From an uncultured archaeon (lineage in GTDB: Archaea > Thermoplasmatota > Penumbrarchaeia > JASLWR01), in assembly GCA_964430885.1 (NCBI GenBank), contig CAYSHM010000004.1, positions 96,001 to 160,000 of the forward strand: a stretch of 64,000 nt of DNA. Reading direction: 5' to 3'. The notes beneath the pieces are model-generated. The model worked only from the letters and a program-made list of their open reading frames with translations. It had not been told where the DNA came from and made no database searches. Both the position numbers and the translations under genes were made by a program. Positions 448 to 56,883 of this stretch are shown piece by piece. Position 1 is the stretch's first letter. Each line of letters starts with the position of its first letter.

Positions 448-562
448 AAATTAAATAAAGAGAATCATATGCATGCAGGATAATATCTCATTGAGATTAT
501 TAAGCTAGATGAATTTGTTCAGAATTAGATTTTGCCTGAATCTTGCTTAGAAGGGAAGTGAT

Positions 563-1660: not shown

Positions 1661-1696
1661 AGAACCTCCAGAACATCTTATAGAATAGAAAAACAG

Positions 1697-1770
1697 AGCC
1701 ACCAGAGGGATTCGAACCCTCGACCTGCTGATTACAAGTCAGCCGCTCAACCGGGCTAAGCTATGGTGGC
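1697..1770 (-). tRNA. tRNA-Thr(UGU)
   Basis: GCCACCA/TGGTGGC acceptor stem, anticodon arm CTGA-CT-TGT-AA-TCAG, GGTTCGAATCC T-arm; no encoded CCA. Confidence 0.95.
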
Positions 1771-2077
1771 AGTTATGATACCTATGGGAACTATGAACTA
1801 GTATATAATTATTTAACTACAAAAAATTTTCAATTTTCCTCATTAAACAGTAATATCACTGGTCCATTCAGTTTAGGGATATGTGCAGCTTTAAAAAGAA
1901 CTCAAATATAATGGGTACTACACACTTTTATATATTTTATTACCTTTAGCTATAAATTACGGTGTTTGATGCCTGAAATAACACTGTAAATATCAGTGTG
2001 AATAATAGGGCTCAATTACATATTCATATAGTCAATAAAATGGGTCCATTCAAGGCCCCAAAGAGAGTGTGATAGCG

Positions 2078-4795
2078 ATGCCAGCAAGAGGAGGACGGGG
2101 ATCTTTTCCATCAGTAACGTATCAGAGCAACGATGACCTAAAGGAGAAACGCCACAGGTTGCTCTGGAAATATACTGTAAAAAAACCCATTACCTGCGTT
2201 TCAATATCCCAAATTGGTCATCGCGTTGCCATTGGCTCTGAGGATAATTATATCTATTATTTTGATAAGAGAAAGGAATTGATATGGGATTTTAATTGCG
2301 GTTCGAAGGTTCTATCCATCGCTTTGACGGAAAAGGGGAAAAAAATAGTGGTGGGAACCCGCAAAGAACTATTGCTGCTCTCTCAGCAGGGAGGGGTTAT
2401 CTGGAGGAAGAACGTTCTAAACGGGATCAACCATGCTCTCATCACAAGCGACGAAAAGGTGATAGTCGCAGCCTGCGTATCCAAAAAGATATTTTTCTAT
2501 GATATGGAGGGAATCCTTTTTTCACAGTATCACACAGAGGCTGAGGTATCGGTTCTGAAGAGGACCAAAAATGACAGCTATATTGTGGCCGCTTCCATGG
2601 CCACAATTATACTATTCGATAAGACTGGAAGACATCTGTGGAATTATAAGACCAAATGGAACATCAATGCACTTACGATATCCCAATTCGGGGAGTTCAT
2701 AATAAGCGGGGCCATGATGTCTCTCTATTGTTTGAACAAGATACCTGATCTTATCTGGAAGACCACTGGGAAGTCAGTTGGAGATGTGGTTGAGATATCA
2801 CCTGAGAAGAATTATATTGTCAGGGGAGGCCGTGATGGGATAGTATCCTGCTATGATCTCACAGGAGAGGTTTTATGGCAGTACAAGACGGGATCAGTTT
2901 TGGCAACACCGTCAAAACCAGTTACTAGAGGAGTTACTTCCCTAGCGCTCAGTAAAATGGGCCTTTATATAGTCCTGGGTTCTGTAAATAAGAAGGTCAG
3001 TGTCCTATCAAGGGATATGCAGATGATATACCGTTTTGAGTGCGATGATGAGGTATTTGATATTAAGATGTCAGAAGTAGGAGAATCCATGGTTCTCGTA
3101 TCTGGGAGCACTCTATATTTTATGGAAAATATAGGTTTCTATCCTATGCTATTCGATGACGTCCGGGAAAAAGTGAACACTGCTGATGACCACGGTTTGA
3201 ATCTAACAAAGATGGAAAGGCTGTACAAGGCTTCTGAAAATTCCTACAAAAAGAAACAGTATTTGAATGCCTGGACCTATTTGCATTCTGTGCTGAAGGA
3301 AATGGATACCCAGAAAAAACACAGGATAAAGGAACTGCTCCCCCAGGTAACAAAGAAAATGGTTCAGAAATCCAAGGAAGGCCGGGACCTTGAAGAGGTG
3401 AAGAGGTTATTGGCACAGGCCAAACACATCTATAAGGAAGGCAGGTATTATGATGCCATACGGGGATTCCAGCATGTATTGGATGTGATGGAACGCCCGG
3501 TTGAGAGAAAACGGCAACCTGTTCGAAGAATCCCCGAACCTAAACCTGAGCCTGAACCTGAACCTGAACCTGAACCCGAACCCGAACCTGAATCTGCGCC
3601 AGTAAGAGAAGTAATAAGGGAACCTGAGCCTGAACCCGAACCTGAACTCATGCCTATTGATGAAAACGCACGGGTTACCTGTCTTGAAAACATTCAAAGA
3701 TTGGAAAGTGAGATACTGACTCTTCGAAATCAGGGCCTGAACTATGAGCAGGTCGAGGAATTGTTGATGAGGGCCCGGATATTATTAAAGGAAGGAAATC
3801 TTGATGGATGCTTAGGTCTTACCGATCAGGGTTTAGCCATTTCCAACAATCTGGCACAGAGAGGGGAGGAACACAGGGCATTGGAATACCTCAGTAAAGG
3901 CACAGAATGGATCCAGAAAGCAAAAACCATGGGAATTGATGCTGCTGAGCATGAAAGAACCATGGCCCGAGCCGTTAAGGCTTTTGAGCAGGAACTGTAT
4001 GCTGAATGTATCAATTTTATTGATGAACTCGAAGAGGAAATAACCCGGGATATGATGAGAACTTCCCCGGAATATCGAAAGGCTGCCGAAGAGATAGAGA
4101 GTTTATCAAAGGACGTTTCTCGATTAAAAAATGCGGGTATCAATACGGTTATTGTGGAAGATATACTTCTCAAATGCAGATATAATTTGGATTCCAATCC
4201 TGCATTGGTTATGCGCCTTTTAGACGATGCCAGGGACAAGGTGGAGGAACTCCGTTCGGAACATGACGATATATCAATGCGTTTCAAGGAAATGCAGAAA
4301 AAAATAGATGAGATGGGCGAAGAGGGTTATGATATGACAAAGACCCAAAACGCCTATCATGACGGCCTTATTGCTCTGTACAGTGGAGATACAAAAAAAG
4401 CCTTGGCATTTTTGGAGACAGCCAATGAACACCTTCAGAACGTTCTTTCAAGTGGGAAAATGGAAGGTGAAGAAGATCCTTTGGTGTCTTCCCTTAAAGA
4501 GCGTAATAATGAACTTGAGGAACAGATCAAGGAACAGGCAGATAAGATAGAGCGCAAGGAGAGGCAGGTTGAAGAATTGGACATTGTTATTAGAGATTTG
4601 AAGGAAAAGATCAGGGAGATGGAGGAATCACAGCCCAAGCTCAAAGATTGTCCTGATTGTAATAATCAGCTTCCGGAGGGAAACATTTTCTGCGGCAAAT
4701 GCGGTCATGAGTTCGAAAGGCTCTGTCCAGAATGCAGTTCCAAGGTACCCAAAGGGTTCCAATTTTGCGGCAAATGTGGCCACAGAATGATCTGA
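2078..4795 (+). CDS. Cytoplasmic WD40/PQQ-like beta-propeller + Glu-Pro linker + helical repeats/coiled coil + double zinc ribbon protein
   Basis: Repeated blades (LLWKY, LIWDF, HLWNY, VLWQY); (EP)n tract; helical repeats; C-terminal CPDC..CGKC..CPEC..CGKC; no signal peptide. Confidence 0.8.
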   Translation: MPARGGRGSFPSVTYQSNDDLKEKRHRLLWKYTVKKPITCVSISQIGHRVAIGSEDNYIYYFDKRKELIWDFNCGSKVLSIALTEKGKKIVVGTRKELLLLSQQGGVIWRKNVLNGINHALITSDEKVIVAACVSKKIFFYDMEGILFSQYHTEAEVSVLKRTKNDSYIVAASMATIILFDKTGRHLWNYKTKWNINALTISQFGEFIISGAMMSLYCLNKIPDLIWKTTGKSVGDVVEISPEKNYIVRGGRDGIVSCYDLTGEVLWQYKTGSVLATPSKPVTRGVTSLALSKMGLYIVLGSVNKKVSVLSRDMQMIYRFECDDEVFDIKMSEVGESMVLVSGSTLYFMENIGFYPMLFDDVREKVNTADDHGLNLTKMERLYKASENSYKKKQYLNAWTYLHSVLKEMDTQKKHRIKELLPQVTKKMVQKSKEGRDLEEVKRLLAQAKHIYKEGRYYDAIRGFQHVLDVMERPVERKRQPVRRIPEPKPEPEPEPEPEPEPEPESAPVREVIREPEPEPEPELMPIDENARVTCLENIQRLESEILTLRNQGLNYEQVEELLMRARILLKEGNLDGCLGLTDQGLAISNNLAQRGEEHRALEYLSKGTEWIQKAKTMGIDAAEHERTMARAVKAFEQELYAECINFIDELEEEITRDMMRTSPEYRKAAEEIESLSKDVSRLKNAGINTVIVEDILLKCRYNLDSNPALVMRLLDDARDKVEELRSEHDDISMRFKEMQKKIDEMGEEGYDMTKTQNAYHDGLIALYSGDTKKALAFLETANEHLQNVLSSGKMEGEEDPLVSSLKERNNELEEQIKEQADKIERKERQVEELDIVIRDLKEKIREMEESQPKLKDCPDCNNQLPEGNIFCGKCGHEFERLCPECSSKVPKGFQFCGKCGHRMI
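3533..3646 (+). repeat. Hexanucleotide (CCTGAA-like) coding repeats giving two Pro-Glu tracts
   Basis: cctgaacctgaacctgaacctgaacccgaacccgaacctgaa, with a shorter second tract about 25 nt downstream. Confidence 0.9.
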
Positions 4796-13183: not shown

Positions 13184-13328
13184 TTTTAGGCATTAGAAAC
13201 TCTAATTTATCACACCTTTTCAAGAAATACTTCGAATTTTGTTCTACTACAGTTCGAACATCGTACCAAAATCCTTTTTATATAGGGGGTAGTATTTGTT
13301 CTTATGAATTTACCTTTAAGGTGAGAAC

Positions 13329-16300
13329 ATGCTCTCTGAAAAACGAAAAAAATATTATTCGATACTATTTGTATTGATTCTGTCATCCATGGCCTTCGGT
13401 ATATTGGTTCCAGCGTCCTCCGCTGCTTCGGAAGATTCGGATTTCGATGGATTGTCAGATGATTATGAAAGATTAATTGGAACTGACCCATTCAATCCTG
13501 ATACCGATGCGGATGGTATGAACGACGCGGACGACCCCACTCCAAAAGGCGGTCTGTTGAACACCGAGGAAGTGTGGACCACCTGGAATATTACTGGCGA
13601 TATGAGTTTGCAGGTTATAGAACAGGGTCAATCCTTCAATGTTTCCTTCCACATATCTAAGTTCAATCCCGATGGGACCGAGGAAGTGCTGGAGAATCTG
13701 GATGCTTATCTATATGTGTATATCAGCAGAAGCTATTCCACCTATCTCAGACTGGATAAGATATCCATTCAGGCTACCATCGGACAGTACGAGCTCAGTT
13801 ACCGATCCAACGACCCTGGCAAATACCGCTTCATTCTGGGAGTGAACGCGAGCCAGATAACATTAGGAACCCATGCCACCTCTTTGGAGATGGATAAATT
13901 ATCCAGTGAGGGTAAGATAGGTTATATTCAGGGAGCGGCCTACCCCCCTTATCACACCACCGTTGCCAGCCTCTATCCCGTTCTCCTTCCAGGACATAAG
14001 GCGCACTACAATATCCAGCGGTACGAGTATGCCCCGCTAGATAATAGTTATTTATTCCTGAAAAGATTTGCCCAGCATTACTCCCCCACAGCGGCAGTCG
14101 GCTCTCTGTATGCCCCTTCAGCCGGAAGCGTCGTTGCTCATCTCTTCAAGGATTCATTGATAAGCAAACAGAATCTATGGGCCCCTGTAGGCGGTCTTGA
14201 GTACAATGTCACCCTCCTCCATCAAGGCGGGTATAATATGGCGGTTACAGCCTATGACACAGAGATAGCCTGGGACCACTTATATTCTCAAAAGTTCCCC
14301 TTTTCCACTGCATATACCTCCATAATTGATCCAGTCTATAGCTGGCTTGAGGTATCACCAGGTACACCAGAGGTATTTCAGAACGTCCAATTCATTGCCA
14401 ACAAATACACTGTAACCACTTCAATGAACGAATCGGCATTCAGCCATTGGTACAGGGGCGGGGGACTGAGGTTTATCATCGAGAATCACCCTGAACATGC
14501 TCAGCCTCATAACACCGATGTCTGGATATCCTTGTTCTATTATGTTTATGATCACTCGGCCAGGACAAGAATGGCCTATACCATGTTCGACAGGAATCTT
14601 ACGCTTAACGGTGATGCATCCACGTCCTTCCAATTAACCCTGCCGGGAACATATGCGGCAGCAGTGAAATATTCTCCAGTCCTCCCAGGCCACCCCCAGC
14701 AGAATTTCCCCCTTTACAGTCGATACGGCTACAAGATCAGGAATGACTATCACGATATCAGCTATTTCCAATGCATAGGGCCGGAATATGTAAATGTGTT
14801 CAAGGACGGGAATGTATATTTCACCCAGACGGGGATAAATGTATCAGTAACCGGCACCAGCAAAGGGAGCATGATGACAGGGCGTGATGCGGCGGTTTAT
14901 CTGGACGGAGTTTATAAAAATACCTTCACCTTCGCTGGAAATTCCAATGATCTGGACCTCGGACAGTTGGCAAAGGGAGCCCATGACGTCCATGTGCTCA
15001 CAATATATGATCAGGACACCAGAACAATAATCGAATCCCTGGGGCTTAGTAATTTCCATTACAACTGGATTGGTCACTGCAGGTTCGAGGTGAAATCCTT
15101 CCTCGTTCATGCCAACGCACCGTCCAACGTTATCAGGGAGCGGCAGGCAAATGTCAGCGTTCTAGTTTACGGATACGGGATGGAGCCTGTTAATAATGCC
15201 CAGGTGAAGATAGAAGCGGACGGCTATAATGCTCCAAGGATACAGGTTGGTCAGGGAACGACAGCAGTGGATGGTACTGCCAAGATAGGTGTGGTTATAC
15301 CTTCCAACGGAAGATATTATCATACTTTTCATATCACCGTGAGCAGGGGCGGGTTAACAGAATCTGTAACTTCCTATTTCTATGCTAGGAGCAGCGTGGC
15401 CAAGGGATTCATTCATACTAATAAACCCATTTATCTTCCAGGGGACGATATCAAGGCCCAGTTCTCAGTATATGATGTGGACGATGCGGCGCCGCATTCC
15501 GGTGAAGTGGAGCTCAGATTGACCTATAGAGGCAACAACAAAGATATCATCTCCGAGCAGGTTGTTCTGGATGAAATGGGGTCCGGGGAGATGGATTTCC
15601 CAATCAGCAGGGATGCACCTTGGGGGGATTATACCATTTCCGTCCTCAGTGACGGATCTGCAGTGGCATCTAGGACCATAGAGGTTCGATATTATGAAAC
15701 TCCCGATACCCGTATAGTTTTCGATGCGTCCCTGGATCTGAGGACCGGCGAGGTTGAGATCCCCGTCCAGGTGGAATATATGTTCGGTTCACCCGTGAAT
15801 CAGGGCAGCGTCCGCTATATCGTGGAGGGATATTCCAATACCTATGTCTATCCCCCTTACTATGGATATTGGTTCATGGACTGCGAGAGCGATGGAATAT
15901 CCGACTGTGCCCTCCCCTACTATGGATGGTACGATCCTGCACCTTTGTTCAAAGAAGATACTAACGTAAGTGTTCTGGGCGGCAGCGCCAATATCACCTT
16001 GAACATACCGAAAGGCGTTAAGCGGCTGTCCATAGCTGCCGAGTTCAGCGATGATTTTGACCATTATTCTGAGAATACCATTGAATATTTTGTCGGGGAA
16101 TCACCTGACCCCGAACTCAAAACAGGTTTAGAGCTCACCCCAGCAGAGAACACATTCACCGTTGGGGATGACATATCCTTCTCACTGCATACATATAATT
16201 ACAAGGATGCGGTCAATGAGGAGGCCGGGGACCTAGAGGAGGAATTTCAGGGTGATGTGAGCACATTCCTTCTTCTGAATGTCACTTCCATGAATGCAGA

Positions 16301-19300
16301 CAGCGCGGTAACCTATGAAGGTGTTTTTGATCTCTATACTGATCTGGAAGGATTGACGGTCTTTGACCTAGAGGAATTGGGATTGGACATTTACAACAAC
16401 TCGGTGAGTGGCAGATACTACTACAAGCTGACCCTTTCAGTGGTGGGCGAAAGCACCCCCCCCGCTACTTTGGAATACTCCTTTTTCATACATTGGGTGG
16501 AATACAGTATCATTTCCAGTCCCAATAGCTTCTCGCCGGGTGAGAACGCCACCATAACTTTGGAAGCCGAAAATAAACTTCATACACTGGATCCAGATTA
16601 TAACTATTCCCTGATCATAACCAAAAGGGATCGTTATTACGGATATTACAACTACTATTACAATTCATATTACGATCACGCACCGATATTCTCTCAGATG
16701 GGTGCAGCTTCAGGACGGAAGGAGATAACATGGCAGGTACCGGATCATATCCCCCAGGGTCTGTACATTGTTAGAGCTGAATTTTCCAATGACAATTACT
16801 CGGTTTCCATGGAGCACGAGGTTGAGATCGTTGATGTACCTCCGCTGAGCATTTCTCTTTCAGCTACTCCTTCCAGCTATTACCCTGGAGACCAGGTGGA
16901 TTTCAGTTTCACTCTCTCAGGGAATTTCAACGGATATGTCTATCTGTCCGTTGATGCGGGTAACGATCATCTTATGGAAAGCCGTATGACTGCAGGCAAT
17001 AACGGGGTATTTACCATTTCTACTTTGGACTGGCACAGTGATCTTTCCGGGACAGTTTATCTTATCGATCCAGATGGACGATTTATCAGCTCTAGCGTTT
17101 CGGTCAAATACGGCATTGATGTGCTTGATATATCTTTGGAGATGAATGCCAGCTCATATGAACCGGGAGACCAAGCCCAACTATCTGTTGAGGCCCTTAT
17201 GAGCGACGGTAGCCCTGCAGAGGGGGCTCATTTCTCACTCAGTATTGCGGATGCGGGAATATTTGAGATAGCGAATGATGCGTCAGCAGGTGATTTCTAT
17301 TCATCTCTGGTCACACCCTATGAGTTTGATTGGGGTTATAGATCTGTATTGAGCTGGTCCAGCGATACCTGGTATCCAGTGGGTTATACCAATATGACCA
17401 AGGGTTATTGGCCATATATCAATCCTGAAGAGCACCCCTGGGATGACGATTACGACGGCGACAGTGCAGGGGGCGGCCAGGGTATGCAGGGAGGGGCCAA
17501 TGACGGAATACCTGAAGGCGATATGGGGGAACAGGCACCCCAGGATGCAGAGCTGAACAACGACCTTCAGGAGCAGCTTGATAATACCGATGTTAGAGAA
17601 TGGTTCACGGATCTGGCCCTATGGCTTCCGGCGGTGATATTGGATGGGAATGGCATGGCATCCATAAATTTCACCCTGCCGGACAATATCTGCAAATGGC
17701 GGGTGAGGGGCACCGGCAGGACCCATGGACTTATCGGGGGTGAATCAGTCATAGAATTCAATGTATCCAAGGATTTCTTTATAGAGCCCAAGCTGCCCTA
17801 CAAGGTTACACAGGATGACGAATTGGAGTTTGACGTTCTCATCTACAACTTCAACAAAAATTCGGTCAATGCCCGGCTTGGAATATCTGCAGGGGAATGG
17901 CTGGGTGTGTTCGGACAGGTTGAGGTTAACATCACCGCCCCTCCAGACACCATTGAGACCCACACATACAAAGTAAAGATATTCGGATCAATGACCAACA
18001 ATCTTACCATTATATGCAGCGATATGGGTGCAAATACTGATGCAGTGAAGAAGGAAATGTTCGTAAAACCCAATGGAGCGCTTTATACCTCTCATCTTAC
18101 AGGAGCGGTAGATCCGCTTTCAGAGGAGATATTGGCCTTCAAGGACGAACTGATCAATGGTTCCCAGAAGGTCATACTGCGCCTGGCACCTGGTTACGGG
18201 GGCCTTCTGAAGATGGGCTATTCCATGCTGTCAGGTTATCCCTATGACTGCACCGAGCAGATCACTTCCCGTTTGGTGCCTGCAGTTATTTTCAGGGAAT
18301 ATCTGAGGGCGACTGGCGGATTGAACTGGTATAACGACCGCCATCTGAAAAGGCGGATCTATACCGAACTGCAGTCTCTGCTTTCTAAGCAGCATCAGGA
18401 TGGAGGATGGGGATGGTGGAAGGGGGATCAAAGTGCACAGTGGATAAGCGGCTGGGTACTTCTTGGTCTGACCCTTACAAGGGATTCAGGGATCCTTGTA
18501 GATAATGCGGTCATTCAAGGGGCTCAGAGTTATCTTATGAACTTCCTTGCAGGTGAAGACCATTGGGAGCCTGGATTGGGTGATGATATGAACGGCCGTG
18601 AACTAACATCCTTCCTGTATTACGCACTTGTGAAATCAGGAGTTCAGGTACTGGCCAGAGTTGAAGATTACCTCTTAGCAGAATATTCCGGTGGAAATCT
18701 TACCTCATATGGTCTTTCATTCTATGGTCTTGCTCTGGAGGAAAAAGATGATTTCTACGGGGATGTATTAACTGCTCTCCTCTCCTCAAAAATTGCTTCC
18801 CATTACCAGAGCAATGAGGCTCTAGGAGGTCATATGGAAACCACAGGATGGGCCCTTCTGCTCCTCGCCAATGATGACACTGAAAAGGCCGAGATGAGGG
18901 AAGCGTTGGAATGGCTGAACTCCCGCCGGCTGCCCAATGGCGACTGGGGCACCACAACAGCCACTACCGCTTCCATGTTGGCAATACTTGAGATGGTCAA
19001 GAATGCCGATCCCACTGATATGGATGTGACCGTCAAGGTCAATGGTCGCCAGATTGCCGCTGAACATGTGGATGAGAGGGCGAACAGGGATTTCTACAAT
19101 CGACTGGATGCTTTGGATATTACATCATATATCCGGGTGAGCGAGCCTAACACTATCACTATTGAAAAACAGGGGAGCGGTGATCTGTTCTACGAACTCA
19201 CCTCGGTGGAATATCTGCGAAAACGTGTCTCCGTGGATTTCACCCAGCATTATACCGTATCAATCGGGTCCACTTTAGACGTTGAGATAACCGCAGACCC

Positions 19301-20720
19301 AGTAAACAGTAACACTCTCAAGGCGGAGGATGTGAATGTCAGATGTTTTACTGGCGACGGCCTCCTCCTTTTATCCGCAAACATCACTGAACCTGCAGAT
19401 CAGGATTCCCCCACTACCTTTTCCTACAAGTATCTGGCCAACAGGATCGGTAAGGCATTCATCTCCCCCGTCATATTATCATACAGACTGAACGCCGGCC
19501 AGAGGTCCAGCGGCCAAATAACCAAGTATTACGGTCCAATTGAGGTCAATATCACCGATTCACCGGCCCGCAGGAGCGGTGTTTACCCTGACGGAATTGT
19601 CCGCAGCGGACCAGGTAAGTTCAATCCAGTACTTACCAAAACCATCACTCCGCAAGTGGTGCGTGCAGGTGAGGAGGCTCAGGTGACATTGAAGCTGGAG
19701 ATGGACTCAATGGCTGCAATAGATGCCTTTACAGAGGATGCGGATCTGTACATACTGGATGAACTTGACGATGATTTCATAATAAGCAATGTCGGACAGT
19801 ATATTACAGGTGATGAAATATTGAAATTCCCCGTGGATATCAATACAAATGAGCAATCATTCAGCTATAAGATCACTTGTCAGGAGTCTCACTCCAAACC
19901 TTTAGGGTCTGCAGTTCTCTACAATGAACATCTTGCGCTATGCAGTTCAGATTCGCCTGAATTCAAGGTCATGGACGGAGCTTCCGGACTTATCAGAAGA
20001 TTCTCAGAATTGGTATCTGAGGTTAACAATGCGGTGGAGATCCACATAGCGGCCTGGTCAGAGGACGCTCTTGGAAATATTGCTCTAGAGGATTACCTCC
20101 CGCCGGGATTTGAGGTTGATGAAACCTCAGTTGAATCCATGGTGGCCAGCAGTGAACATGTCAGTTCCTACGAATTAACCTCTGAAGGAGTGGTATTCTT
20201 CCTATATTCTTCGGATTCGGAGGTTGAATTCAGCTACAAGGCAGTGCCTACAATTCCCGGGAGGATGGTGGCACCCTGCGCTATAATGTATCCTATGTAT
20301 TCACCTTTGGATACAGTAGAATCAGAGTCATATCTGTTGACAGTGGTCCCTGAGGGATCGGAATGGGCAGTGGAATATATTCCCATGGAGGACGGTCAGA
20401 ATTCACTGGTGAACAACTCCGACGGAACTGATCCGGCAGATCCAGATCCAGCGGACAATTCCACCGATAAAGATGACGATACGCCTCAGAACCCAAATGA
20501 AACTCCAGGTGTGTCAGTCCCAATCAGCGGCCCCGACGGTCCCGGGGACGGTACTGGGGATAACGTCCAGGAGCCACCGGAGGATGTGAATGATCCAGGT
20601 AACGGCCGCGGTGATGGGGAAGAGGCGGGGCCGCTTCTGGGCTTTATTATCATGGGTGCCTTGTTTTTGGTACTGGCAGTTTTGATGATAATAAAATATA
20701 AAAGTAAAAAGCGCAGGTAG
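13329..20720 (+). CDS. Alpha-2-macroglobulin-family thioester protein, membrane-anchored
   Basis: MG-domain motif HTNKPIYLPGD, post-bait VREWFTDLALW and LPDNICKWRV, thioester PYDCTEQ (CTEQ at 18249-18260), QHQDGGWGWW, C-terminal EDYLPPGFE..PMYSP; signal peptide; C-terminal TM + KYKSKKRR. Confidence 0.92.
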   Translation: MLSEKRKKYYSILFVLILSSMAFGILVPASSAASEDSDFDGLSDDYERLIGTDPFNPDTDADGMNDADDPTPKGGLLNTEEVWTTWNITGDMSLQVIEQGQSFNVSFHISKFNPDGTEEVLENLDAYLYVYISRSYSTYLRLDKISIQATIGQYELSYRSNDPGKYRFILGVNASQITLGTHATSLEMDKLSSEGKIGYIQGAAYPPYHTTVASLYPVLLPGHKAHYNIQRYEYAPLDNSYLFLKRFAQHYSPTAAVGSLYAPSAGSVVAHLFKDSLISKQNLWAPVGGLEYNVTLLHQGGYNMAVTAYDTEIAWDHLYSQKFPFSTAYTSIIDPVYSWLEVSPGTPEVFQNVQFIANKYTVTTSMNESAFSHWYRGGGLRFIIENHPEHAQPHNTDVWISLFYYVYDHSARTRMAYTMFDRNLTLNGDASTSFQLTLPGTYAAAVKYSPVLPGHPQQNFPLYSRYGYKIRNDYHDISYFQCIGPEYVNVFKDGNVYFTQTGINVSVTGTSKGSMMTGRDAAVYLDGVYKNTFTFAGNSNDLDLGQLAKGAHDVHVLTIYDQDTRTIIESLGLSNFHYNWIGHCRFEVKSFLVHANAPSNVIRERQANVSVLVYGYGMEPVNNAQVKIEADGYNAPRIQVGQGTTAVDGTAKIGVVIPSNGRYYHTFHITVSRGGLTESVTSYFYARSSVAKGFIHTNKPIYLPGDDIKAQFSVYDVDDAAPHSGEVELRLTYRGNNKDIISEQVVLDEMGSGEMDFPISRDAPWGDYTISVLSDGSAVASRTIEVRYYETPDTRIVFDASLDLRTGEVEIPVQVEYMFGSPVNQGSVRYIVEGYSNTYVYPPYYGYWFMDCESDGISDCALPYYGWYDPAPLFKEDTNVSVLGGSANITLNIPKGVKRLSIAAEFSDDFDHYSENTIEYFVGESPDPELKTGLELTPAENTFTVGDDISFSLHTYNYKDAVNEEAGDLEEEFQGDVSTFLLLNVTSMNADSAVTYEGVFDLYTDLEGLTVFDLEELGLDIYNNSVSGRYYYKLTLSVVGESTPPATLEYSFFIHWVEYSIISSPNSFSPGENATITLEAENKLHTLDPDYNYSLIITKRDRYYGYYNYYYNSYYDHAPIFSQMGAASGRKEITWQVPDHIPQGLYIVRAEFSNDNYSVSMEHEVEIVDVPPLSISLSATPSSYYPGDQVDFSFTLSGNFNGYVYLSVDAGNDHLMESRMTAGNNGVFTISTLDWHSDLSGTVYLIDPDGRFISSSVSVKYGIDVLDISLEMNASSYEPGDQAQLSVEALMSDGSPAEGAHFSLSIADAGIFEIANDASAGDFYSSLVTPYEFDWGYRSVLSWSSDTWYPVGYTNMTKGYWPYINPEEHPWDDDYDGDSAGGGQGMQGGANDGIPEGDMGEQAPQDAELNNDLQEQLDNTDVREWFTDLALWLPAVILDGNGMASINFTLPDNICKWRVRGTGRTHGLIGGESVIEFNVSKDFFIEPKLPYKVTQDDELEFDVLIYNFNKNSVNARLGISAGEWLGVFGQVEVNITAPPDTIETHTYKVKIFGSMTNNLTIICSDMGANTDAVKKEMFVKPNGALYTSHLTGAVDPLSEEILAFKDELINGSQKVILRLAPGYGGLLKMGYSMLSGYPYDCTEQITSRLVPAVIFREYLRATGGLNWYNDRHLKRRIYTELQSLLSKQHQDGGWGWWKGDQSAQWISGWVLLGLTLTRDSGILVDNAVIQGAQSYLMNFLAGEDHWEPGLGDDMNGRELTSFLYYALVKSGVQVLARVEDYLLAEYSGGNLTSYGLSFYGLALEEKDDFYGDVLTALLSSKIASHYQSNEALGGHMETTGWALLLLANDDTEKAEMREALEWLNSRRLPNGDWGTTTATTASMLAILEMVKNADPTDMDVTVKVNGRQIAAEHVDERANRDFYNRLDALDITSYIRVSEPNTITIEKQGSGDLFYELTSVEYLRKRVSVDFTQHYTVSIGSTLDVEITADPVNSNTLKAEDVNVRCFTGDGLLLLSANITEPADQDSPTTFSYKYLANRIGKAFISPVILSYRLNAGQRSSGQITKYYGPIEVNITDSPARRSGVYPDGIVRSGPGKFNPVLTKTITPQVVRAGEEAQVTLKLEMDSMAAIDAFTEDADLYILDELDDDFIISNVGQYITGDEILKFPVDINTNEQSFSYKITCQESHSKPLGSAVLYNEHLALCSSDSPEFKVMDGASGLIRRFSELVSEVNNAVEIHIAAWSEDALGNIALEDYLPPGFEVDETSVESMVASSEHVSSYELTSEGVVFFLYSSDSEVEFSYKAVPTIPGRMVAPCAIMYPMYSPLDTVESESYLLTVVPEGSEWAVEYIPMEDGQNSLVNNSDGTDPADPDPADNSTDKDDDTPQNPNETPGVSVPISGPDGPGDGTGDNVQEPPEDVNDPGNGRGDGEEAGPLLGFIIMGALFLVLAVLMIIKYKSKKRR

Positions 20721-22997: not shown

Positions 22998-25900
22998 ATG
23001 TTCCGAATTTCAGATATTTTCAGCCCCTTGAAACAGTTGGTTTTTCCTCTTCTTTCTGTATTTCTCCTTCTAACAATACTTTTCCAACCATTTGTTGATG
23101 CAGGGTTCAAATTTGATCCACAGGTAACTCAGCCTTCACATTCCCTTGATTTTGCCAGGATCGAATGTGTTTCTTCGTATGAGGAAGATAAAACCCGGGA
23201 GGACCATTCCCATCTATTGAACTATGATGATGTTGTTCTTATAGTCAATGATAACTCCCAGATGTCAAGGGATGTGGCGGATTATTTCGTTGCTAACCGA
23301 AATTTTCCAGTTAATAATATCATCAATATCACAGCTCCTACTGGTGAGACGGTCAACAGGAACCAGTTCAATGATTTCAGGGAACAGATAGAGGAGAACA
23401 TCACTGACCGGAACCTAACTCTGAAGATCAATTATATTATTACCACAAAAGGGGTGCCTCTACGGATATCCGGCGGGGCGAACCAGAGAGCCAGTGTCGA
23501 TTCGGAGCTGGCATTGATATTGAACAGTAACCAGAACTATATAGGCAACAATGGCTGGATGATAAATCCCTATTACGGTCAGTTCAAGCCCTTCACCTCC
23601 AAAAAATATGACATGTATCTGGTCACGAGACTGACGGCCTATACTTTCGATGAGATCAAAGCGATAATAGACAATGCTGCAAATTCCTTAAATGTCACCG
23701 GAGAGTTCGTTCTGGATGTGGACCCTGGCCGAGACGGATCACCGGGATACAAGATTGGTAACGATTGGCTCCGCAGCGCCAATCATACCCTCTCAAATAT
23801 GGGCATGGATACCTACTTCGATACAACAAATACCTTTGTTAATAACCGAACGGGCGTAATGGGTTATTCATCCTGGGGGTCCAACGATGGGCATTGGTTC
23901 AAGAACCTTGTGTCCAACTCTAATATGGAGACTGACGGTAATGGTGATGATATTCCAGACAGCTGGTATCCTGTTGAACAGGCGAACAGCAGTGTAAATA
24001 GAAGTGATGAGGACTCCTACAGGAACACCTATTCAGTAAAACTCGCCCGCCAGAATTCTGGAGATGGTGAGGTGTCGCTCTATCAGGATTTCTACGTGGA
24101 GCCCGATAGGAGATACTACCTTTCAGGATATGCCAATCTATCCGGTGTTAGCAGCGATGGATACGCCCGTCTGAGAATAAAGGCGGTGGATTCCCATGGC
24201 GATGTGTTATGGAACAAGTACGGTACCCAAAGGAGGGGAACTACCAATGAGTGGAAATCCATGGGTCAGCTTATTTACGAGCCTATACCAGGAGTTGTCA
24301 GGCTCGAATTGGGATGTACGCTCTTCAAGTCATCTGGAACTGCATATTTTGATTACGTAAGGCTCAATGAGATAAGACCTCATATGGAATTTCTTCCCGG
24401 AGCAATAGCCGAAACCTTCGTGTCCACCGGCGGCAGGAGCATGACATACGGGACCGCTTACGGTCAATCCCTGGTTGCCGATCTTCTCAGAGAAGGTGTT
24501 ACAGGGGTTAAAGGATATACCTGGGAACCATATCTTTCCGCAATATCCCATCCTGATAAACTCCTTCCCTGGTATGCCTCAGGATATGATCTGGCCTCAT
24601 CATTCTGGGCGGGGTCCCAGTTCATCGGCTGGATGGGGACGGTGATCGGCGACCCGAAATGCGCTCCTTACTACTACTCAAGGCCCGATCTTGAGGTGAC
24701 ATCCTTGGAACTGTCGCATGCCGAACCGTCGCAGCATGAGGACCTTCAAATTAATATAACCTTGACCAACAGCGGGTTCGGGGATGCGGACTCCACTTTT
24801 AGTATCACACTCTGGAATGACAGCATAGGGGGTGAGGATCTGGATACAAGATTCCACTCCCTTTCAGCAGGAGGGAATTTGGCCTTGACCTTCAAAATCG
24901 AGGCAACCCAGATGAACGGCACTAACCGTTTTGTCCTGGAGGTTGACAGAGGCAACAACATACTAGAGACCGATGAGAGCAACAATATTGAGCTTATTGA
25001 ACTCTATGTGAACGAGAGGCCTAAAGCTGTATCCCAGTTTCCACATGTGGAGGTTTTGGAGGACTCATTCAATAACTCTCTGGATCTTACGGATATGTAT
25101 TTTTCAGATAGGGAAGGCGATCTACTTCATTTCAGGGTTGAACCTCATGGTATATCCGATTATATATTGAATCGACTGAATTACTCAATAGAAGAAGGAT
25201 ATCTCAATATCAGCGTATACGATAACATGACCATCCAGGATATTGTTTTCAGAATTTACTGTGACGATAGGTATCCAGTTGGTAATGATATTTTTCTTGA
25301 TCTCTACGTTTCAGTGCTCCCGATAAATGATCCCCCTTTCCTCTGGAAGACTCCTTTACCCATAGTATTGAACGAAGGCGGGATAATCGAATCCCAGCAG
25401 CTTAAGGAGAGGGATATTTTCAGGGATATTGACAGCGATGACCTGTATTATGCCATAAGGATTATGGAAATGGAGGAGATTTCAGGGATATCCCCTGAGG
25501 AAGTGAACATCACCCTCAAGGTCAACGATGATATCAAGGTGATAAGTCCCGGTGACTATTACGGCAACATTACCCTTAGAACCTTTTGCTGGGATGAGCG
25601 GTTCAATCTCAGCGCCCTGTCCATGAACGATACCGGACCTTATACCTGGATAGACCTGGTTATTAACATTCAACCAATAAATGATGCTCCTAAATTCGAA
25701 GAGGAGGATGTATATGTTTTCATTCCAGAGGATGCCTATAAGTATCCCACTCTTAATCTGTCCTCAGTATGTCATGATATTGACAATGATTTTGATTCTC
25801 TGAAGTGGGATATATCAGATATAGTGCCTCAGGGGAAGGCCGAAGCCAATATAGAAGATGGGCGCCTTTTAGTAACTTTACCTCTCAATTATACTGACGG

Positions 25901-26858
25901 TGTACTGATGAAATTAAGGGTCAGTGACGGACAATACACTTCAGATTGTTATGTTCATCTGGAGCCAGTTCCTCTAAATGATCTTCCGGTTCTGAATATT
26001 AAGTCCTTATCTGAAAAGGCTGATGGCAATCTCAGCTTGAAACTGGAATTTACCGACAGCGACACGGCGGCGACGGATATGAGATTTAATATTAGCGTGG
26101 ACAGGGAAAGCAATCTAAATGTACCCTTACTGGAATTCATACCGGTTTCTGAGAATTCCTACCGGACCTCAATGACGCTGGTAATTGATCATCTGACGCT
26201 CACACCGGGCAATCATACCCTTTGGGTGGAGATTTGGGATTCAGAGGATACGTGGTCTGAAGCTATGGCTTTGTTCTTGGTACCTGAACCCCAAGGAGGC
26301 GAGAACGGCGACGATGATGATGACAACAATGTATCTGATGATGACAATGACGATACAGGCGGTTCGGACGACAATAGTGGAATAAACGAAGAATCGGAAA
26401 AACCATTCTACTCCGAGCCTGTGAACCTTATAGTTGCAGGGATCGTTGTAATCCTGATAATTGGCAGTATAGCTCTTGCCCTGGCCCTTCGGAGAAAGAA
26501 GAGTAAGAAGGAGGTTAAGGGCGGTCCATCAGGTGAAGGAAGTATGGATGACATTTATGGCGCTTACTTGGATGAAATGGCTTTTGGGGAAGACGAGGAA
26601 ATCGAGGATGAGGGTTATGATGATGACAGGATTATCCATGAATCTTTGGGTCATTCTGGAATCAAGGTGAAAGAAGATGACCTGGATATGTATCCACCTG
26701 ATGATGAAGATGATCTAATCTTGGAATCTCAAGTTGAGACAGAGGGCATTATGGTTGCATCTGAGCATAGTTCCGATGCGAGTTCACCCGACGAGGAGGT
26801 AGGGATGGAGGATGTAGAGGATGAAAAAAGCTCGAAAATACCGCCCCCTCCCAAATAG
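22998..26858 (+). CDS. TIGR03790-family surface protein with carbohydrate-binding-like insert, CARDB and cadherin-like repeats, TM anchor and acidic tail
   Basis: VVLIVNDNS..S..VADYF, SVDSEL, SWGSND, FLPGAIAETFVST, QSLVADLLREGVTGVKGYTWEPYL, VIGDP; CARDB (PDLEV..ETDESNN); PINDPP/PINDAP repeats. Confidence 0.8.
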   Translation: MFRISDIFSPLKQLVFPLLSVFLLLTILFQPFVDAGFKFDPQVTQPSHSLDFARIECVSSYEEDKTREDHSHLLNYDDVVLIVNDNSQMSRDVADYFVANRNFPVNNIINITAPTGETVNRNQFNDFREQIEENITDRNLTLKINYIITTKGVPLRISGGANQRASVDSELALILNSNQNYIGNNGWMINPYYGQFKPFTSKKYDMYLVTRLTAYTFDEIKAIIDNAANSLNVTGEFVLDVDPGRDGSPGYKIGNDWLRSANHTLSNMGMDTYFDTTNTFVNNRTGVMGYSSWGSNDGHWFKNLVSNSNMETDGNGDDIPDSWYPVEQANSSVNRSDEDSYRNTYSVKLARQNSGDGEVSLYQDFYVEPDRRYYLSGYANLSGVSSDGYARLRIKAVDSHGDVLWNKYGTQRRGTTNEWKSMGQLIYEPIPGVVRLELGCTLFKSSGTAYFDYVRLNEIRPHMEFLPGAIAETFVSTGGRSMTYGTAYGQSLVADLLREGVTGVKGYTWEPYLSAISHPDKLLPWYASGYDLASSFWAGSQFIGWMGTVIGDPKCAPYYYSRPDLEVTSLELSHAEPSQHEDLQINITLTNSGFGDADSTFSITLWNDSIGGEDLDTRFHSLSAGGNLALTFKIEATQMNGTNRFVLEVDRGNNILETDESNNIELIELYVNERPKAVSQFPHVEVLEDSFNNSLDLTDMYFSDREGDLLHFRVEPHGISDYILNRLNYSIEEGYLNISVYDNMTIQDIVFRIYCDDRYPVGNDIFLDLYVSVLPINDPPFLWKTPLPIVLNEGGIIESQQLKERDIFRDIDSDDLYYAIRIMEMEEISGISPEEVNITLKVNDDIKVISPGDYYGNITLRTFCWDERFNLSALSMNDTGPYTWIDLVINIQPINDAPKFEEEDVYVFIPEDAYKYPTLNLSSVCHDIDNDFDSLKWDISDIVPQGKAEANIEDGRLLVTLPLNYTDGVLMKLRVSDGQYTSDCYVHLEPVPLNDLPVLNIKSLSEKADGNLSLKLEFTDSDTAATDMRFNISVDRESNLNVPLLEFIPVSENSYRTSMTLVIDHLTLTPGNHTLWVEIWDSEDTWSEAMALFLVPEPQGGENGDDDDDNNVSDDDNDDTGGSDDNSGINEESEKPFYSEPVNLIVAGIVVILIIGSIALALALRRKKSKKEVKGGPSGEGSMDDIYGAYLDEMAFGEDEEIEDEGYDDDRIIHESLGHSGIKVKEDDLDMYPPDDEDDLILESQVETEGIMVASEHSSDASSPDEEVGMEDVEDEKSSKIPPPPK

Positions 26859-27057
26859 ATTATATTGATTCACCTAGCCGAAAGCTCTTCAATAATGAAT
26901 GATTTTTTAGAATATAAATGGAAAATGTCATATAACTGGGTGTTGTTTTTTAAAGGAGATTCAATATTCGGTATGCTTCAAAATCTTTGAATAATACGGT
27001 TTATCGATCAAATGATGTATCATATCGATATGCTCTGCAGTTGAGGTGAGTTGTCAT

Positions 27058-30000
27058 ATGTCCGGAAATAATGAGAATATTAGAACAAATAAAAGGTTGA
27101 TACTTATTTTGGTTTGTCTGAGTTTATTGCTCCAGGCCTTAGTAATTTATTTTCCAGCGGAGTCGCAGGGTGAAACTGTAATTTCGAGGGATACTCATAT
27201 CAATGGGGAACAGATCTGGAGTTTTTTAGGAAGCCCATATATTATCAAGGGAAATGTGTATGTGGATAATAATGCCATTTTGACCATAGGGGCCGGAGTA
27301 ACAGTGAAGTTCGATGAGGATGCCCAGATGATAGTCAACGGAGGACTAATAATTGCAGGTATTTCAAATAATCCAGTAATTTTCACGACAAATTCAACAG
27401 TACGGCCCGGACCTGATGAATGGAATTATCTCGGCCTCAATCCGTCCGATGAAATTGTTAGCATAGATAATCTCACCGTTCGATACAGCAGGTACGGTCT
27501 CCGCTTTGCCGCAGGATGCAATGGAGTGGATTGGCATTTCAATAATATCCTCGTAGAGACGGTGAACACAGGGGTTTTTATGAATGCGGTGGATAAGATC
27601 AAGATAGATAATATCGAGATCCAGAATTGCCAATGGAAGGGAATCAGTATGGTTGGATCCATCAATGTGACTTTTAATAAATTCAATATCACAAATACCC
27701 TTCAAGCAGGAATAATCCTCGACAATGTTCAGGATTGTGTTTTTCGCGATGGGGACGTTAGTAATTCCGATACGAGCGGCATCACAATGATTTCTACAAG
27801 TAATAATAACAAGGTGATCAATACAAAGTTCCATCGATGCAAAGCGGGTGTTACAATATATTCAGGGTCCCGAAACAATATCATAGATGGATGTGAAATT
27901 TATGAAAATCTTGAATCAGGGTTAGATACGCCAACTGATAACGGAGCGGTTTTCAGAGATAATGAATTACATTCAAATCCTGAAAATTTTGCATTAACTC
28001 CACATCAAAACTATGATCTGACATTCCAAAACGTCAATACAGTGGAAGGCGACCCGGTAGTAACTCTGGAGGATACATCAACATATGAGGTAGAGGGATC
28101 CCGGCAATCTGTTGGTATGCTGATAATTAAAAACTGCAGTAATATTGGGGTTTCAGGTCTGTACCTTCAGAATAACACTCCATCAATACTTGTTCATGGT
28201 TCTTCCAATATCAGGATTGGCAATTCAACATTTTCCTCCTCTCCCGAAGGCCTTCGTACCTATCAATCAAATAACATTCATATCAACAACAACACCTTCG
28301 ATCTTCATGGACTCCCTAGTGCAGGGGTTTATGTGGAATACTCCAACCAGATCAACATATCAAAAAATCGTTTCTTTGATATACCTGACGGCAATGAAAA
28401 TAATAATCAATCAATAGGGGTCGCTATAGGTGAGAGCCATCATATTTGGGTGGATGGCAACGCCTTTGAAAACGTTACTACTGCTGTTGCAGCCGGAATC
28501 GATTCCGGCGATTGTGATAGGTTATGGGTGGCGGATAATAACATCATTTCACCGAAAATAGGTCTTCTCCTGGCAAATGGACGTAGGTATCACGTAATGA
28601 ATAATAGGATTGACAACGCAGAAACAGGTGTTATGCTCCTGATAGTTACTCAAAGCGAAATTAGGGATAATGGAATACTCAATTCGGAAAACTCCGTTGT
28701 GCTATTAGGGGTGAATTGGACAAAAATTGTGAATAACCTGTTCCAGGATTCGCAGAGAGGTTTGAATCTATCGATGTCGCTTAATAGAGGCAGGGGTGGA
28801 ACAAGATGGGTCTTACCTCCAGATTTTTTCAAGTCTGAAAATAATTCAATTTATTACAACGTTTTCAAGGATATAACAGATCCCCTTGTGAGAGGATTTG
28901 AGGAAGTTAAGAACTTTTGGAACCATTCAGAATTCCTTGAAGGGAATTATTGGTCTAACTACATGGGAGCTGATGACGGCAGCAATGGGGCTGTTCCCGG
29001 AGACGGTATAGGGGATACGCTGCTACCCCATGAGGACGTTGACAATTACCCATTCATGGAGGAGTGGGGATGGAGACCTGAAGTTCCGGTTATTGAACCT
29101 ATCCCGGAGAATTCATTCGATGTTGAATCCATAGTTGTCAATTGGTCCGAATCAAGCCAGGCTGAAGGATATGTCTTGCATATTTCGGAGGACGAGTCTT
29201 TCCAATATTTCAGAGAGATAGGGTCCCATAACAACTCAACAGAAGTATCCTTCATCGGTGAAGGTCATAAATATATGAGGGTGATTGCTGAGAACCAATA
29301 TGGTTTCAGAGATTTCTCGGATATGGTAATGACTAATTTCCAGCTGTCACCCTTGGAACCATTCAATCAAAGCGTTTCATTACCTCCTGAGGGCAACAGC
29401 ATCAACTTCAGCTGGGAATCAGTGCCAGATCTCAATGTGGAGGCCTTTGAGATATTGTTCTTTGAAGGAATTGAAACTCAATTTCCTCCCACTTCACCTT
29501 ACGCTTCTGGCTGGATAAGTACGAATGTCAGCCAGGAACAAAATTGGATATTGATTGAGGGTTTGGAAAATGGAATGAACTATACATTTACGGTTCGTGC
29601 ACTTGATAGTTTTGGACTCATTTCACCTGTGACAATATTAATATATGCCGCACCGCAAGATATCACACCGCCTGAAGCTCCAGGTCCTCTTACAATTGGA
29701 ACCCTTGACGCTTATTTCGTGGAGTTCAACCTGTCACCTCCTCCATCGGATGATATCAAGGAATACAGACTGTACAGGTCCACAGGGACCAGAGCTGTAT
29801 CCCTGGCATCCACAGCAACTGGCAATTCAACGGTCATTGCAGATGACAATCCCGTTGCAGGCAATTCCCAGTATGCAGTAGCTGCTGTTGATCATTCGAA
29901 CAACACTTCTCCTTATTCCCCATGGATTAATGTGACAGTTCCCTCGAAAAATTTTGCCCCTATCTTAAGCTCGAATTCATCACTGTTCTTCATACATATG

Positions 30001-31653: not shown

Positions 31654-31920
31654 TCGCCTGCGAATAATCCAATGGCATTTATTACTGGTATCCTTCCTGT
31701 ATTTACATCAGTTATATTGATTGGAGAAATGAAGGAAATATAGGTATAGTAATTTAATTGGTTTAGTAGGAGATTCCCTGATTTTCTTCGGCTCTTTCAG
31801 CTCTTTCTTTGTTTTTTTTATATCTAATAGAAAATTAAAACTATGAAAACGTTTAATTCTCACGAAATCTAATATGTTTAAATCAGATTGAAAATCATAA
31901 TGCTTATGCGGAGTGTTAAT

Positions 31921-42311: not shown

Positions 42312-42460
42312 TAATATCCCCTCTGTCGAATCATGTGGGTTAATTAAAAACATATTCCAAACTATTGATTAAAAGGTTTATCCCATGTAGGAATGGAAAA
42401 AATAATGTTGGATTGGGTAATAAATATTTCAATATTGATTCAATCACAGGTGCATGACCG

Positions 42461-55773: not shown

Positions 55774-55914
55774 AATATTTCCTCCATATCCCAAATAGGA
55801 TAAAAGTGTATATTTATTAAATGTGATTCATTATTATAAATGTATTTTGGTACGTCCGTGGGATTATTATATAAAAATTTTGGAAATAAGGGAAGAACCG
55901 CTCTTATTATCCTT

Positions 55915-56874: not shown

Positions 56875-56883
56875 ATGCTCCAC

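Follow-up and report, generated by a model that had tools for sequence, protein, structure and literature searches.

Thioester macroglobulins play a central part in the innate immunity of animals and have been studied in a handful of Gram-negative bacteria. Here, we describe an archaeal gene of the alpha-2-macroglobulin (A2M) family, found in a 64,000-nucleotide stretch of DNA from an uncultured archaeon (positions 96,001 to 160,000 of contig CAYSHM010000004.1, GenBank assembly GCA_964430885.1; hereafter the window), whose 2,463-residue product displays the canonical domain order of the family, a conserved CxEQ thioester motif and a C-terminal transmembrane (TM) helix. By analogy with characterised relatives, this protein would act as a surface-tethered, bait-triggered covalent protease trap on a marine Thermoplasmatota archaeon, a reading to which we give a probability of roughly 0.6.

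Known thioester macroglobulins and how the archaeal protein compares

The occurrence of the family in archaea is already known, and the protein described here is a long variant within it, which leaves the known distribution of A2M unchanged. Sequence analysis by Makarova, Wolf, Karamycheva and Koonin (2021; PMC8416519) identified 27 archaeal A2M homologues with intact CxEQ in 24 genomes, and the authors discuss such homologues in an immunity or conflict context. Like our protein, these homologues have a predicted signal peptide, immunoglobulin (Ig)/macroglobulin (MG) domains and a thioester domain (TED) with intact CxEQ, and they are often found among putative surface proteins. The main text deals mainly with Halobacteria and Methanomicrobia and contains none of the words Thermoplasma, bait or membrane anchor; its supplementary tables may list Thermoplasmata. 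Our protein differs from the homologues as presented there in its long form (~2,400-2,800 aa), its N-terminal extension, its two extra domains and its C-terminal TM helix.

Bacterial Type I A2Ms (ECAM/YfhM, 5a42, 4rtd and 4ziq; Sa-A2M, 4u48) are also prokaryotic and share with our protein CxEQ, a bait region, a ring of MG domains, a bMG10-type last domain and a membrane tether facing outside the cytoplasm; a monomeric 'snap-trap' mechanism as in these proteins would be expected. There are differences, however, since our protein (i) has no lipobox, its anchor being a C-terminal TM helix and not an N-terminal lipid, (ii) is encoded in a genome without pbpC, with Maf and DUF2070 genes as neighbours, (iii) matches, of the bacterial-type MG domains, only bMG10, with bMG3, bMG5 and bMG6 (PF11974, PF17972 and PF17962) unreported at E <= 0.1 (divergence could hide them), (iv) is about 800 aa longer and (v) is less like ECAM than it is like eukaryotic thioester-containing proteins (TEPs), with fold Z-scores of ~25 versus ~34 and profile E-values of 8e-33 versus 4e-62. 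Bacterial Type II A2Ms (MagD/YfaS) lack CxEQ and are encoded in a six-gene mag-type operon, whereas our protein has CxEQ and no conserved multi-gene operon was found at its locus in the comparison described below.

The best matches, over both MG7-CUB-TED-MG8 and MG1-MG6, are metazoan proteins, that is, CD109 (8s3o), A2ML1 (7q5z), insect TEP1 (2pn5) and the human A2M protomer (7von), from which our protein differs in sequence (13-20% identity), in its extra N-terminal module and two extra domains, and in having only 11 Cys in 2,463 residues. CD109 is GPI (glycosylphosphatidylinositol)-anchored. An earlier interpretation made from the DNA alone (hereafter the sequence-only reading) had likened the tether of our protein to that of CD109, which holds insofar as both are surface-held by their C-terminus; the anchor, however, is a plain TM helix and not GPI, and the likeness is one of analogy only. 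Complement C3, C4 and C5 share the MG7-CUB-TED-MG8 arrangement, but the ANATO and NTR/C345C domains were unmatched in a Pfam scan of our protein, no catalytic His is conserved, and a disordered acidic linker takes the place of the folded ANA domain.

Domain architecture and predicted fold

Five A2M-family Pfam domains score above their curated cut-offs, in the canonical order MG2, A2M_BRD, A2M/MG7, TED_complement and bMG10 (Table 1), and an open reading frame (ORF) of such length with such Pfam E-values is not a chance one. The landmarks on which the sequence-only reading was built are all recovered in their proper places. They comprise (i) the N-terminal Ca-binding repeat (DSDFDGLSD at aa 36 and GTDPFNPDTDADG at aa 51), whose Asp ladder (D36, D38, D40, D44, D53, D58, D60, D62, D66 and D69) is invariant in 10/10 aligned orthologues, though the TSP3_bac (PF18884) match at aa 36-57, with 21.1 bits (E 2.9e-4), stays under its cut-off of 25, (ii) the acidic Gly-rich segment before VREWFTDLALW (aa 1422, nt 17592), (iii) CTEQ after an Asp, (iv) the additional Ig-like domains after the TED, predicted as two beta domains, (v) the C-terminal domain ending in PMYSP (aa 2322), which falls within bMG10/MG8 (PF07677 reaches 18.8 bits on this region, below its cut-off), and (vi) the acidic stalk and C-terminal TM helix, which give a type-I topology that is conserved in orthologues.

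Two AlphaFold models were used, one of aa 1400-2340 (model 1: 27-row alignment, mean predicted local distance difference test (pLDDT) 86.1, predicted template modelling score (pTM) 0.75) and one of aa 75-1270 (model 2: pLDDT 83.2, pTM 0.55). Model 1 consists, in order, of MG7, a CUB half, a 12-helix TED, the other CUB half, two additional beta domains (A and B, separated by a low-pLDDT linker at model residues 681-696) and a final MG domain. Its best Foldseek matches are complement C3b, C3, C5 and C4 chains (E 1e-33 to 1e-27). In a second comparison with VIA-align, covering 981 chains, native A2ML1 (7q5z; Z 34.0, root-mean-square deviation (rmsd) 5.6 over 649) and the native A2M monomer (7von; Z 33.9, rmsd 4.5 over 601) were followed by TEP1r (2pn5; Z 33.7), C5 (7op0; Z 33.6), C3 (2a73; Z 32.6) and native CD109 (8s3o; Z 28.9), complement C3/C4/C5 chains as a whole giving Z 30-33.6; ECAM (5a42; Z 24.9, rmsd 7.8 over 623) and Sa-A2M (4u48; Z 24.6) scored lower. 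These TEP alignments span model 1 residues 26-940 but pair only ~580-650 of them, and the last MG domain of A2M, TEP1 and C5 falls on the strands at 837-940.

The predicted TED is a 12-helix toroid around CTEQ, in line with the TED fold that the sequence-only reading had proposed. Isolated TEDs superpose on it with rmsd 2.9-3.4 (C5 TED 9y6c, Z 26.9, rmsd 2.9 over 265; C4Adg 1hzf, Z 25.8; C3d, Z 24.7). Activated states fit model 1 worse, with rmsd 11.7 for induced A2M (7voo), rmsd 12.0 for active CD109 (9fx3) and Z 24.4 for TEV-conjugated A2ML1. The predicted arrangement is therefore native-like, and clearly nearer to native than to activated states.

In model 2, the stretch 516-1196 can be aligned with residues ~1-545/570 of the C3 beta chain, TEP1, A2M, CD109 and C5, with Z 14-16.4 and a high rmsd of 8-18 A for the MG ring. 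Since these matches begin at model residue 516 (aa 590), the canonical MG1 would start near aa 590. No PDB TEP alignment covers aa 75-589, the fold search with model 2 being filled by the MG ring, and this part is, as modelled, a lineage-specific, confidently folded, beta-rich extension. Pfam gave no match above cut-off in any of six sub-segments of the extension and extra domains, and atlas feature scores linking the extension to Thermoplasmatota Ig/MG-like clusters reached 0.89, below the 0.9 lead level. The lineage-specific parts of the protein are three, namely the ~515-aa extension behind the Ca-repeat, the two beta domains inserted after CUB and before MG8, and the TM anchor. The N-terminal ring, the bait-region domain, MG7-CUB-TED-CUB-MG8 and CxEQ, all the sequence and fold marks of the A2M/TEP superfamily that were looked for, are present alongside them.

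The thioester motif

The sole CxEQ in the protein is C1641-TEQ (aa 1641-1644), exactly where the sequence-only reading had put it. C1641, T1642, E1643 and Q1644 are invariant in 10/10 orthologues, within a conserved YPY.CTEQ..S, and the alignment of the wider sub-family shows an intact CxEQ in 18 of 21 members. The residue in front of the Cys is Asp in the clade of our protein, His in P0003 and Gly in most others, with further residues in other family members that keep CxEQ; because this position varies among CxEQ-keeping members, Asp can be seen as a trait of the clade and no defect.

These same data bear on a second explanation, which we consider quite improbable: a thioester-independent envelope protein, whose A2M scaffold would be structural, adhesive or a non-covalent Type II/MagD-like cage, with CxEQ either unconverted or dispensable. 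Three long-form relatives in the sub-family have lost the Cys while keeping the architecture, that is, P0052 (STEA), P0059 (TSEQ) and P0060 (gap). There is also a precedent, since MagD, a bacterial Type II A2M, traps protease without a thioester (PMC5764988). The Asp in place of the usual Gly and the number of N-glycosylation sequons in the ectodomain (~28 versus 18.6 +/- 4.0 in shuffled sequences, 10 of 500 shuffles reaching 28), as expected of an envelope glycoprotein, point the same way. However, none of C, E and Q changes in any of the 10 orthologues, whose overall identities are 29-52%, and together with the conserved YPY.CTEQ..S context this argues for selection on a reactive site, while the non-Gly residues found before the Cys in other members with CxEQ take weight from the Asp argument.

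As for the chemistry, the His of the TEP1 YHKEM motif, which we take to be the catalytic His of C3 and TEP1, aligns (HMMER) to a conserved Trp, W1746; next to it, H1745 is replaced by T, A or Y in five close orthologues. In C3 and TEP1, that His serves the reaction with hydroxyl groups. Because no catalytic His is conserved, we infer that the thioester would undergo direct amine attack, probably by Lys, as in A2M-type inhibitors.

Relatives and distribution

Of 6,856 candidates screened in a word-indexed search, 45 proteins reached E <= 0.001; nine of these are full-length or nearly so, with identities to our protein of 48-52% (P0002-P0007) or 29-31% (P0008-P0010). The closest named relative, P0007 (52%), is listed at NCBI as 'MAG: alpha-2-macroglobulin family protein, partial [Candidatus Thermoplasmatota archaeon]'. 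A contig pattern scan yielded 14 candidate stretches, six of which were confirmed, five in Thermoplasmata/Thermoplasmatota metagenome-assembled genomes (MAGs) and one in an 'uncultured archaeon'. An exhaustive HMMER search with aa 1400-2340 retrieved 10,406 cluster representatives at E <= 0.001 (534 at E <= 1e-30), and ~20 long proteins (roughly 2,400-2,800 aa) match across the whole MG7-to-MG8 stretch.

For a tree of the MG7-TED core (FastTree), 193 proteins were considered, of which 189 matched the core HMM and 178 covered the core and were kept, 11 partial matches and four non-matching rows being dropped. Our protein belongs to a clade of seven rows (support 100), itself nested in one of 22 rows (support 99). 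Of these 22 rows, 20 carry a C-terminal TM helix, and one of the other two (P0007) is partial. The long form is a well-supported clade of about 22 sequence clusters, and all of its taxon-named members are Thermoplasmatota. The region aa 1400-2340 is matched in 14 of 41 related genomes, including all three other genomes of the family. Across the phylum, PF00207 occurs in 31 of the 301 genomes sampled (27/137 genera; 12/214 high-quality genomes), in proteins of either a short form (~1,450-1,720 aa) or a long form (~2,390-2,790 aa), the short form matching TED_complement, MG3, MG4 and A2M_recep more fully. Some related genomes (G014, G040, G010 and G005) have both long and short (~1,600 aa) genes, and in one of them (G014:C165, loci L016/L017) the two lie ~10 kb apart on one contig. 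Given this spread across the phylum, the NCBI-named orthologue and the archaeal CxEQ homologues already in print in PMC8416519, the high novelty that the sequence-only reading had assigned to the protein was overstated.

The sub-family profile scores solved proteins in the order CD109 (4e-62), A2M (3e-58) and TEP1 (1e-55), followed by YfhM (8e-33) and Sa-A2M (9e-29). The special kinship with animal TEPs that these values and the fold scores suggest is not supported, since scores are no phylogeny, named metazoan sequences being absent from the tree; the sole metagenome protein in it that is named 'CD109 antigen' (P0195) sits in another clade, of 54 rows.

Bait-like segment and extra domains

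The segment directly preceding the conserved L..ELE.T.VREWFTD..W contains 16 D/E, 10 G and 0 K/R in 58 residues, which bears out its earlier description as acidic and Gly-rich. The acidic helix followed by VREWFTD..W presumably corresponds to the position of the C3 alpha'-chain N-terminus, and the exposed linker between MG6 and MG7 is, judging from sequence, the predicted bait. Across the sub-family, this segment ranges from ~50 to ~250 aa and is hypervariable in length and sequence, sometimes with TSP3 repeats; in P0053, P0057 and P0059, it is expanded to ~200-250 aa with TSP3 Ca-binding repeats inside. Among six close orthologues, its identity is 0.34 versus a mean of 0.57, while conservation is lowest of all in the stalk (0.22) and, among folded parts, in extra domain B (0.23-0.28), whose variability may reflect either relaxed constraint or a fast-evolving recognition surface. 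As a separate observation, 19 of the 178 A2M representatives in the tree (P0062, P0069, P0076, P0149 and others) have 3-8 hydrophobic mid-protein helices, about where the bait would lie.

The variability of domain B is one reason to consider a complement/TEP-like covalent tagger or adhesin, in which a tethered thioester, activated proteolytically or mechanically, would bond a foreign surface (particle, cell or virus), fixing the archaeon to it or marking it, with the variable extra domains as recognition modules. We regard this as unlikely, although several lines of evidence speak for it: (i) domain B, and not the bait, is the least conserved folded part, (ii) the profile scores higher for solved eukaryotic TEPs than for enterobacterial A2Ms and fold scores rank alike, (iii) the protein has Ca-binding TSP3-like repeats and many Ig-like domains, and its neighbours are large adhesin-like proteins (CARDB, NosD/beta-helix and PKD), and (iv) archaeal A2M homologues are discussed in an immunity/conflict context in PMC8416519. 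Against it, the conserved catalytic His of C3/TEP1 is missing, Pfam found no anaphylatoxin or C345C domain, no conserved partner gene that could serve as convertase or receptor turned up in the locus comparisons described below, and, as noted, the eukaryotic-TEP scores are no phylogeny and P0195 falls outside the clade of our protein.

A more novel reading, which we view as a long shot, would be a membrane-tethered, complement-like covalent 'harpoon' that is no protease inhibitor, in which cutting of the bait by a foreign or own protease would free the thioester to bond a particle, a neighbouring cell or a virus, with the choice of target falling to the fast-evolving domain B together with the N-terminal extension. 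If true, this would be an archaeal surface-recognition or innate-immunity device on an animal TEP scaffold.

Surface anchoring

Hydropathy confines hydrophobic stretches to aa 9-33 and 2432-2459, the latter followed by KYKSKKRR. The N-terminal stretch is present in 8/10 aligned orthologues and the C-terminal TM helix, after an acidic Pro/Gly-rich stalk, in 9/10, the tenth being a partial protein; cytoplasmic tails in orthologues are 60-110 aa long, whereas our protein has only KYKSKKRR. Other modes of attachment found no support, since the last 60 aa match none of the NCBIfam CTERM families of archaeosortase/exosortase sorting signals at E <= 10, and the first 40 residues contain no lipobox ([LVI][ASTVI][GAS]C), the N-terminus being a Sec-type signal ending in ASSAAS. 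Fourteen proteins of the window that are large or membrane-bound were inspected, and 8 of them have an N-terminal hydrophobic stretch together with a C-proximal TM helix; a TM anchor is therefore this organism's ordinary means of surface attachment.

Proposed function

The protease-trap reading draws its support from family membership, domain order, TED fold, conserved CxEQ, native-like predicted arrangement and topology. The protein would work like a monomeric A2M-, ECAM- or CD109-type trap. It would be secreted in a type-I orientation, the acidic stalk and the single C-terminal TM helix holding the ectodomain on the surface, where (i) in the 'native' fold the Cys1641-Gln1644 thioester would be buried between TED and MG8, (ii) an endopeptidase would cut the exposed, disordered bait-like segment, (iii) the ensuing rearrangement would expose the thioester, which would react with a nucleophile of the protease, probably Lys amines, and (iv) the protease would stay covalently attached at the cell surface, under steric hindrance. 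Thioester formation, bait cleavage, protease trapping and the choice of proteases are here modelled on characterised relatives. The targets could be foreign proteases or the large subtilases of the cell itself. Six S8 subtilases (ORFs of 663-1,552 aa) are matched in the genome, and uncultivated Thermoplasmata are reported to degrade detrital protein in marine sediments (PMC9123169), which together make protease-rich surroundings plausible.

Several points weigh against this reading. The loss of the Cys in 3/21 sub-family members implies that the thioester is dispensable in the wider clade, and in our protein and its close orthologues Asp stands in place of Gly before the Cys. Among 40-aa windows, the bait-like segment ranks fifth from the bottom in conservation, with more variation in the stalk and in domain B, and, lacking Lys and Arg, it offers no site to trypsin-like enzymes. 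The two models cover aa 75-1270 and 1400-2340, and so only the last part of the bait; a simple trap does not explain the ~515-aa N-terminal extension and the two extra domains; and no experimental work on an archaeal A2M member was found in the literature searched.

If the trap works, marine protein-degrading archaea could use it to survive in protease-rich surroundings, and it would represent a monomeric, membrane-tethered A2M, apparently nearer to animal TEPs than E. coli ECAM is in profile and fold. For a cell with nothing but a membrane and a surface layer to protect, the scaffold appears to have been modified by a TM anchor on a long acidic stalk and by extra domains, without a partner for cell-wall repair. 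The protein, a well-conserved and architecturally extended member of the family, is well suited to be the first archaeal thioester macroglobulin examined biochemically.

Gene, source genome and neighbourhood

The gene is a single uninterrupted ORF of 2,463 codons, by far the longest of the region (antisense ORFs within it are 81-93 aa), and its features are collected in Table 1. It is contiguous, with 0 differences, in contigs from two sequencing runs that are possible sources of the DNA, and its sequence is identical in contigs of four runs (four rows of one study, labelled marine metagenome; none is an RNA dataset), whose comparison revealed no informative variant within the gene. A C>A change at 17789 and two joints were rejected as strain variation, because the contigs behind them are short and of low depth, and their matches, at 85-90%, are limited to short conserved stretches.

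Table 1. Features of the A2M gene and its product (nucleotide positions refer to the window)
Feature	Nucleotides	Residues	Strand	Basis
Whole gene, membrane-anchored thioester macroglobulin (P0001)	13329..20720	2,463 aa	+	ORF list, translation, Pfam domain order
Putative expression signals: TATA-like TTTTTATATA (13275-13284) and GGTGA (13320-13324), 5 nt before ATG	13275..13324		+	Direct reading of the sequence
Signal peptide (KRKK, hydrophobic core, ASSAAS; putative cleavage site)	13329..13427	1-33	+	Hydropathy peak at aa 9-33
TSP3-like Ca-binding Asp repeat	13434..13544	36-72	+	PF18884, Asp ladder
Lineage-specific N-terminal extension, beta-rich with few helices (predicted)	13551..15095	75-589	+	Model 2 residues 1-515, mostly pLDDT 80-95
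MG1-MG6 ring and bait-region domain	15096..17414	590-1362	+	Pfam MG2 and A2M_BRD; model 2 alignment
MG2 (PF01835)		692-784	+	Pfam, 47.0 bits
A2M_BRD (PF07703)		1176-1313	+	Pfam, 31.8 bits (cut-off 22.7)
Bait-like segment, acidic, Gly-rich	17415..17588	1363-1420	+	Composition; between BRD and VREWFTD..W at MG7 start
MG7 (Pfam A2M, PF00207)	17616..17879	1430-1517	+	75.1 bits, E 3.9e-21
CUB, first half (predicted)	17880..18191	~1518-1621	+	Strands at model 1 residues 123-222; aligned within native TEPs
TED, alpha/alpha toroid (predicted)	18192..19004	1622-1892	+	Twelve helices, model 1 residues 223-493, pLDDT mostly 85-96
TED_complement (PF07678)		1632-1737	+	Pfam, 46.9 bits
Thioester motif C-T-E-Q	18249..18260	1641-1644	+	Sequence; orthologue alignment
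CUB, second half (predicted)	19017..19217	~1897-1963	+	Model 1 strands 498-564; C4 alignments end at model residue 566
Extra beta-sandwich domain A (predicted)	19230..19556	1968-2076	+	Model 1 strands 569-677; absent from solved TEPs
Extra beta domain B (predicted)	19629..20003	2101-2225	+	Model 1 strands 702-826
MG8/bMG10 C-terminal macroglobulin domain, includes PMYSP	20022..20345	2232-2339	+	PF17973; model 1 strands 837-940 (aa 2236-2339)
bMG10 (PF17973)		2232-2326	+	Pfam, 31.9 bits
Acidic Pro/Gly-rich stalk	20346..20621	2340-2431	+	24 D/E, 2 K/R, 14 P and 13 G in 92 residues
C-terminal TM helix (aa ~2434-2455) with the cytoplasmic end KYKSKKRR	20628..20717	~2434-	+	Hydropathy

The source genome (3.13 Mb, 44 contigs, estimated 91.6% complete) contains an archaeal small-subunit (SSU) rRNA (1,503 bits) and, as the relatives of the protein come from Thermoplasmata/Thermoplasmatota MAGs, the protein is archaeal, just as had been supposed from the outset. 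The gene is the only PF00207 match, and thus the sole A2M gene, in this genome. The absence of a pbpC partner, also predicted by the sequence-only reading, extends to the whole 91.6%-complete genome, which has no match to the PF00912 transglycosylase.

Upstream, the gene is preceded by those for an MscS-like channel, a type-I membrane protein of 433 aa that belongs to no family, and Maf; downstream, it is followed by those for a membrane protein with DUF2070, a CARDB protein of 1,286 aa and two NosD/beta-helix proteins (1,535 and 1,508 aa). No conserved partner gene or multi-gene operon emerged when 18 window proteins were compared (tblastn) with the loci of five related genomes, where only Maf and A2M recur, solely in two genomes of the same family; nor did Pfam reveal a recurring partner among 23 neighbours at these loci. 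Orthologues are instead surrounded by surface proteins of various kinds, in which Pfam finds PKD, beta-helix, FG-GAP and beta-propeller domains. Two candidate partners were rejected: DUF2070, which is directly downstream here yet does not adjoin the orthologues, and the 433-aa upstream protein, which is unrelated to the metallophosphoesterase found upstream in relatives.

The G+C content at 14001-20000 is 0.47-0.48, versus 0.36-0.44 in the 8 kb upstream and 0.41-0.46 downstream; this elevation may stem from the Asp/Gly/Ala-rich composition of the protein or from a foreign origin of the gene. Elsewhere in the window, giant type-I surface proteins are encoded in a run at 22998-36414 (+) and 39108-42353 (-), comprising the CARDB protein, the two NosD/beta-helix paralogues and a 1,081-aa PKD protein; the NosD paralogues have in common a Cys-rich CPGCEFDY motif and ~200-aa acidic cytoplasmic tails ending in MFKIDL or MFKIDI. 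At 53761-58914 (-), an archaeosortase C-like gene (55915-56883; TIGR03762 82.4 bits, below cut-off; exo_archaeo signature 57.8 bits, above cut-off) lies between genes for paralogous VIT-VWA surface proteins (677 and 676 aa), both of which end in a TM helix and a basic tail, one with a weak PEF-CTERM match (E 0.15, below cut-off), and the whole looks like a sortase with its substrates. An 815-aa protein encoded at 51299-53746 (-) has an N-terminal signal, a WD40 beta-propeller and a TM helix, with a Ser/Thr kinase domain at the C-terminus, and a 908-aa protein encoded at 2069-4795 (+) consists of a WD40/PQQ-like propeller and double zinc ribbons.

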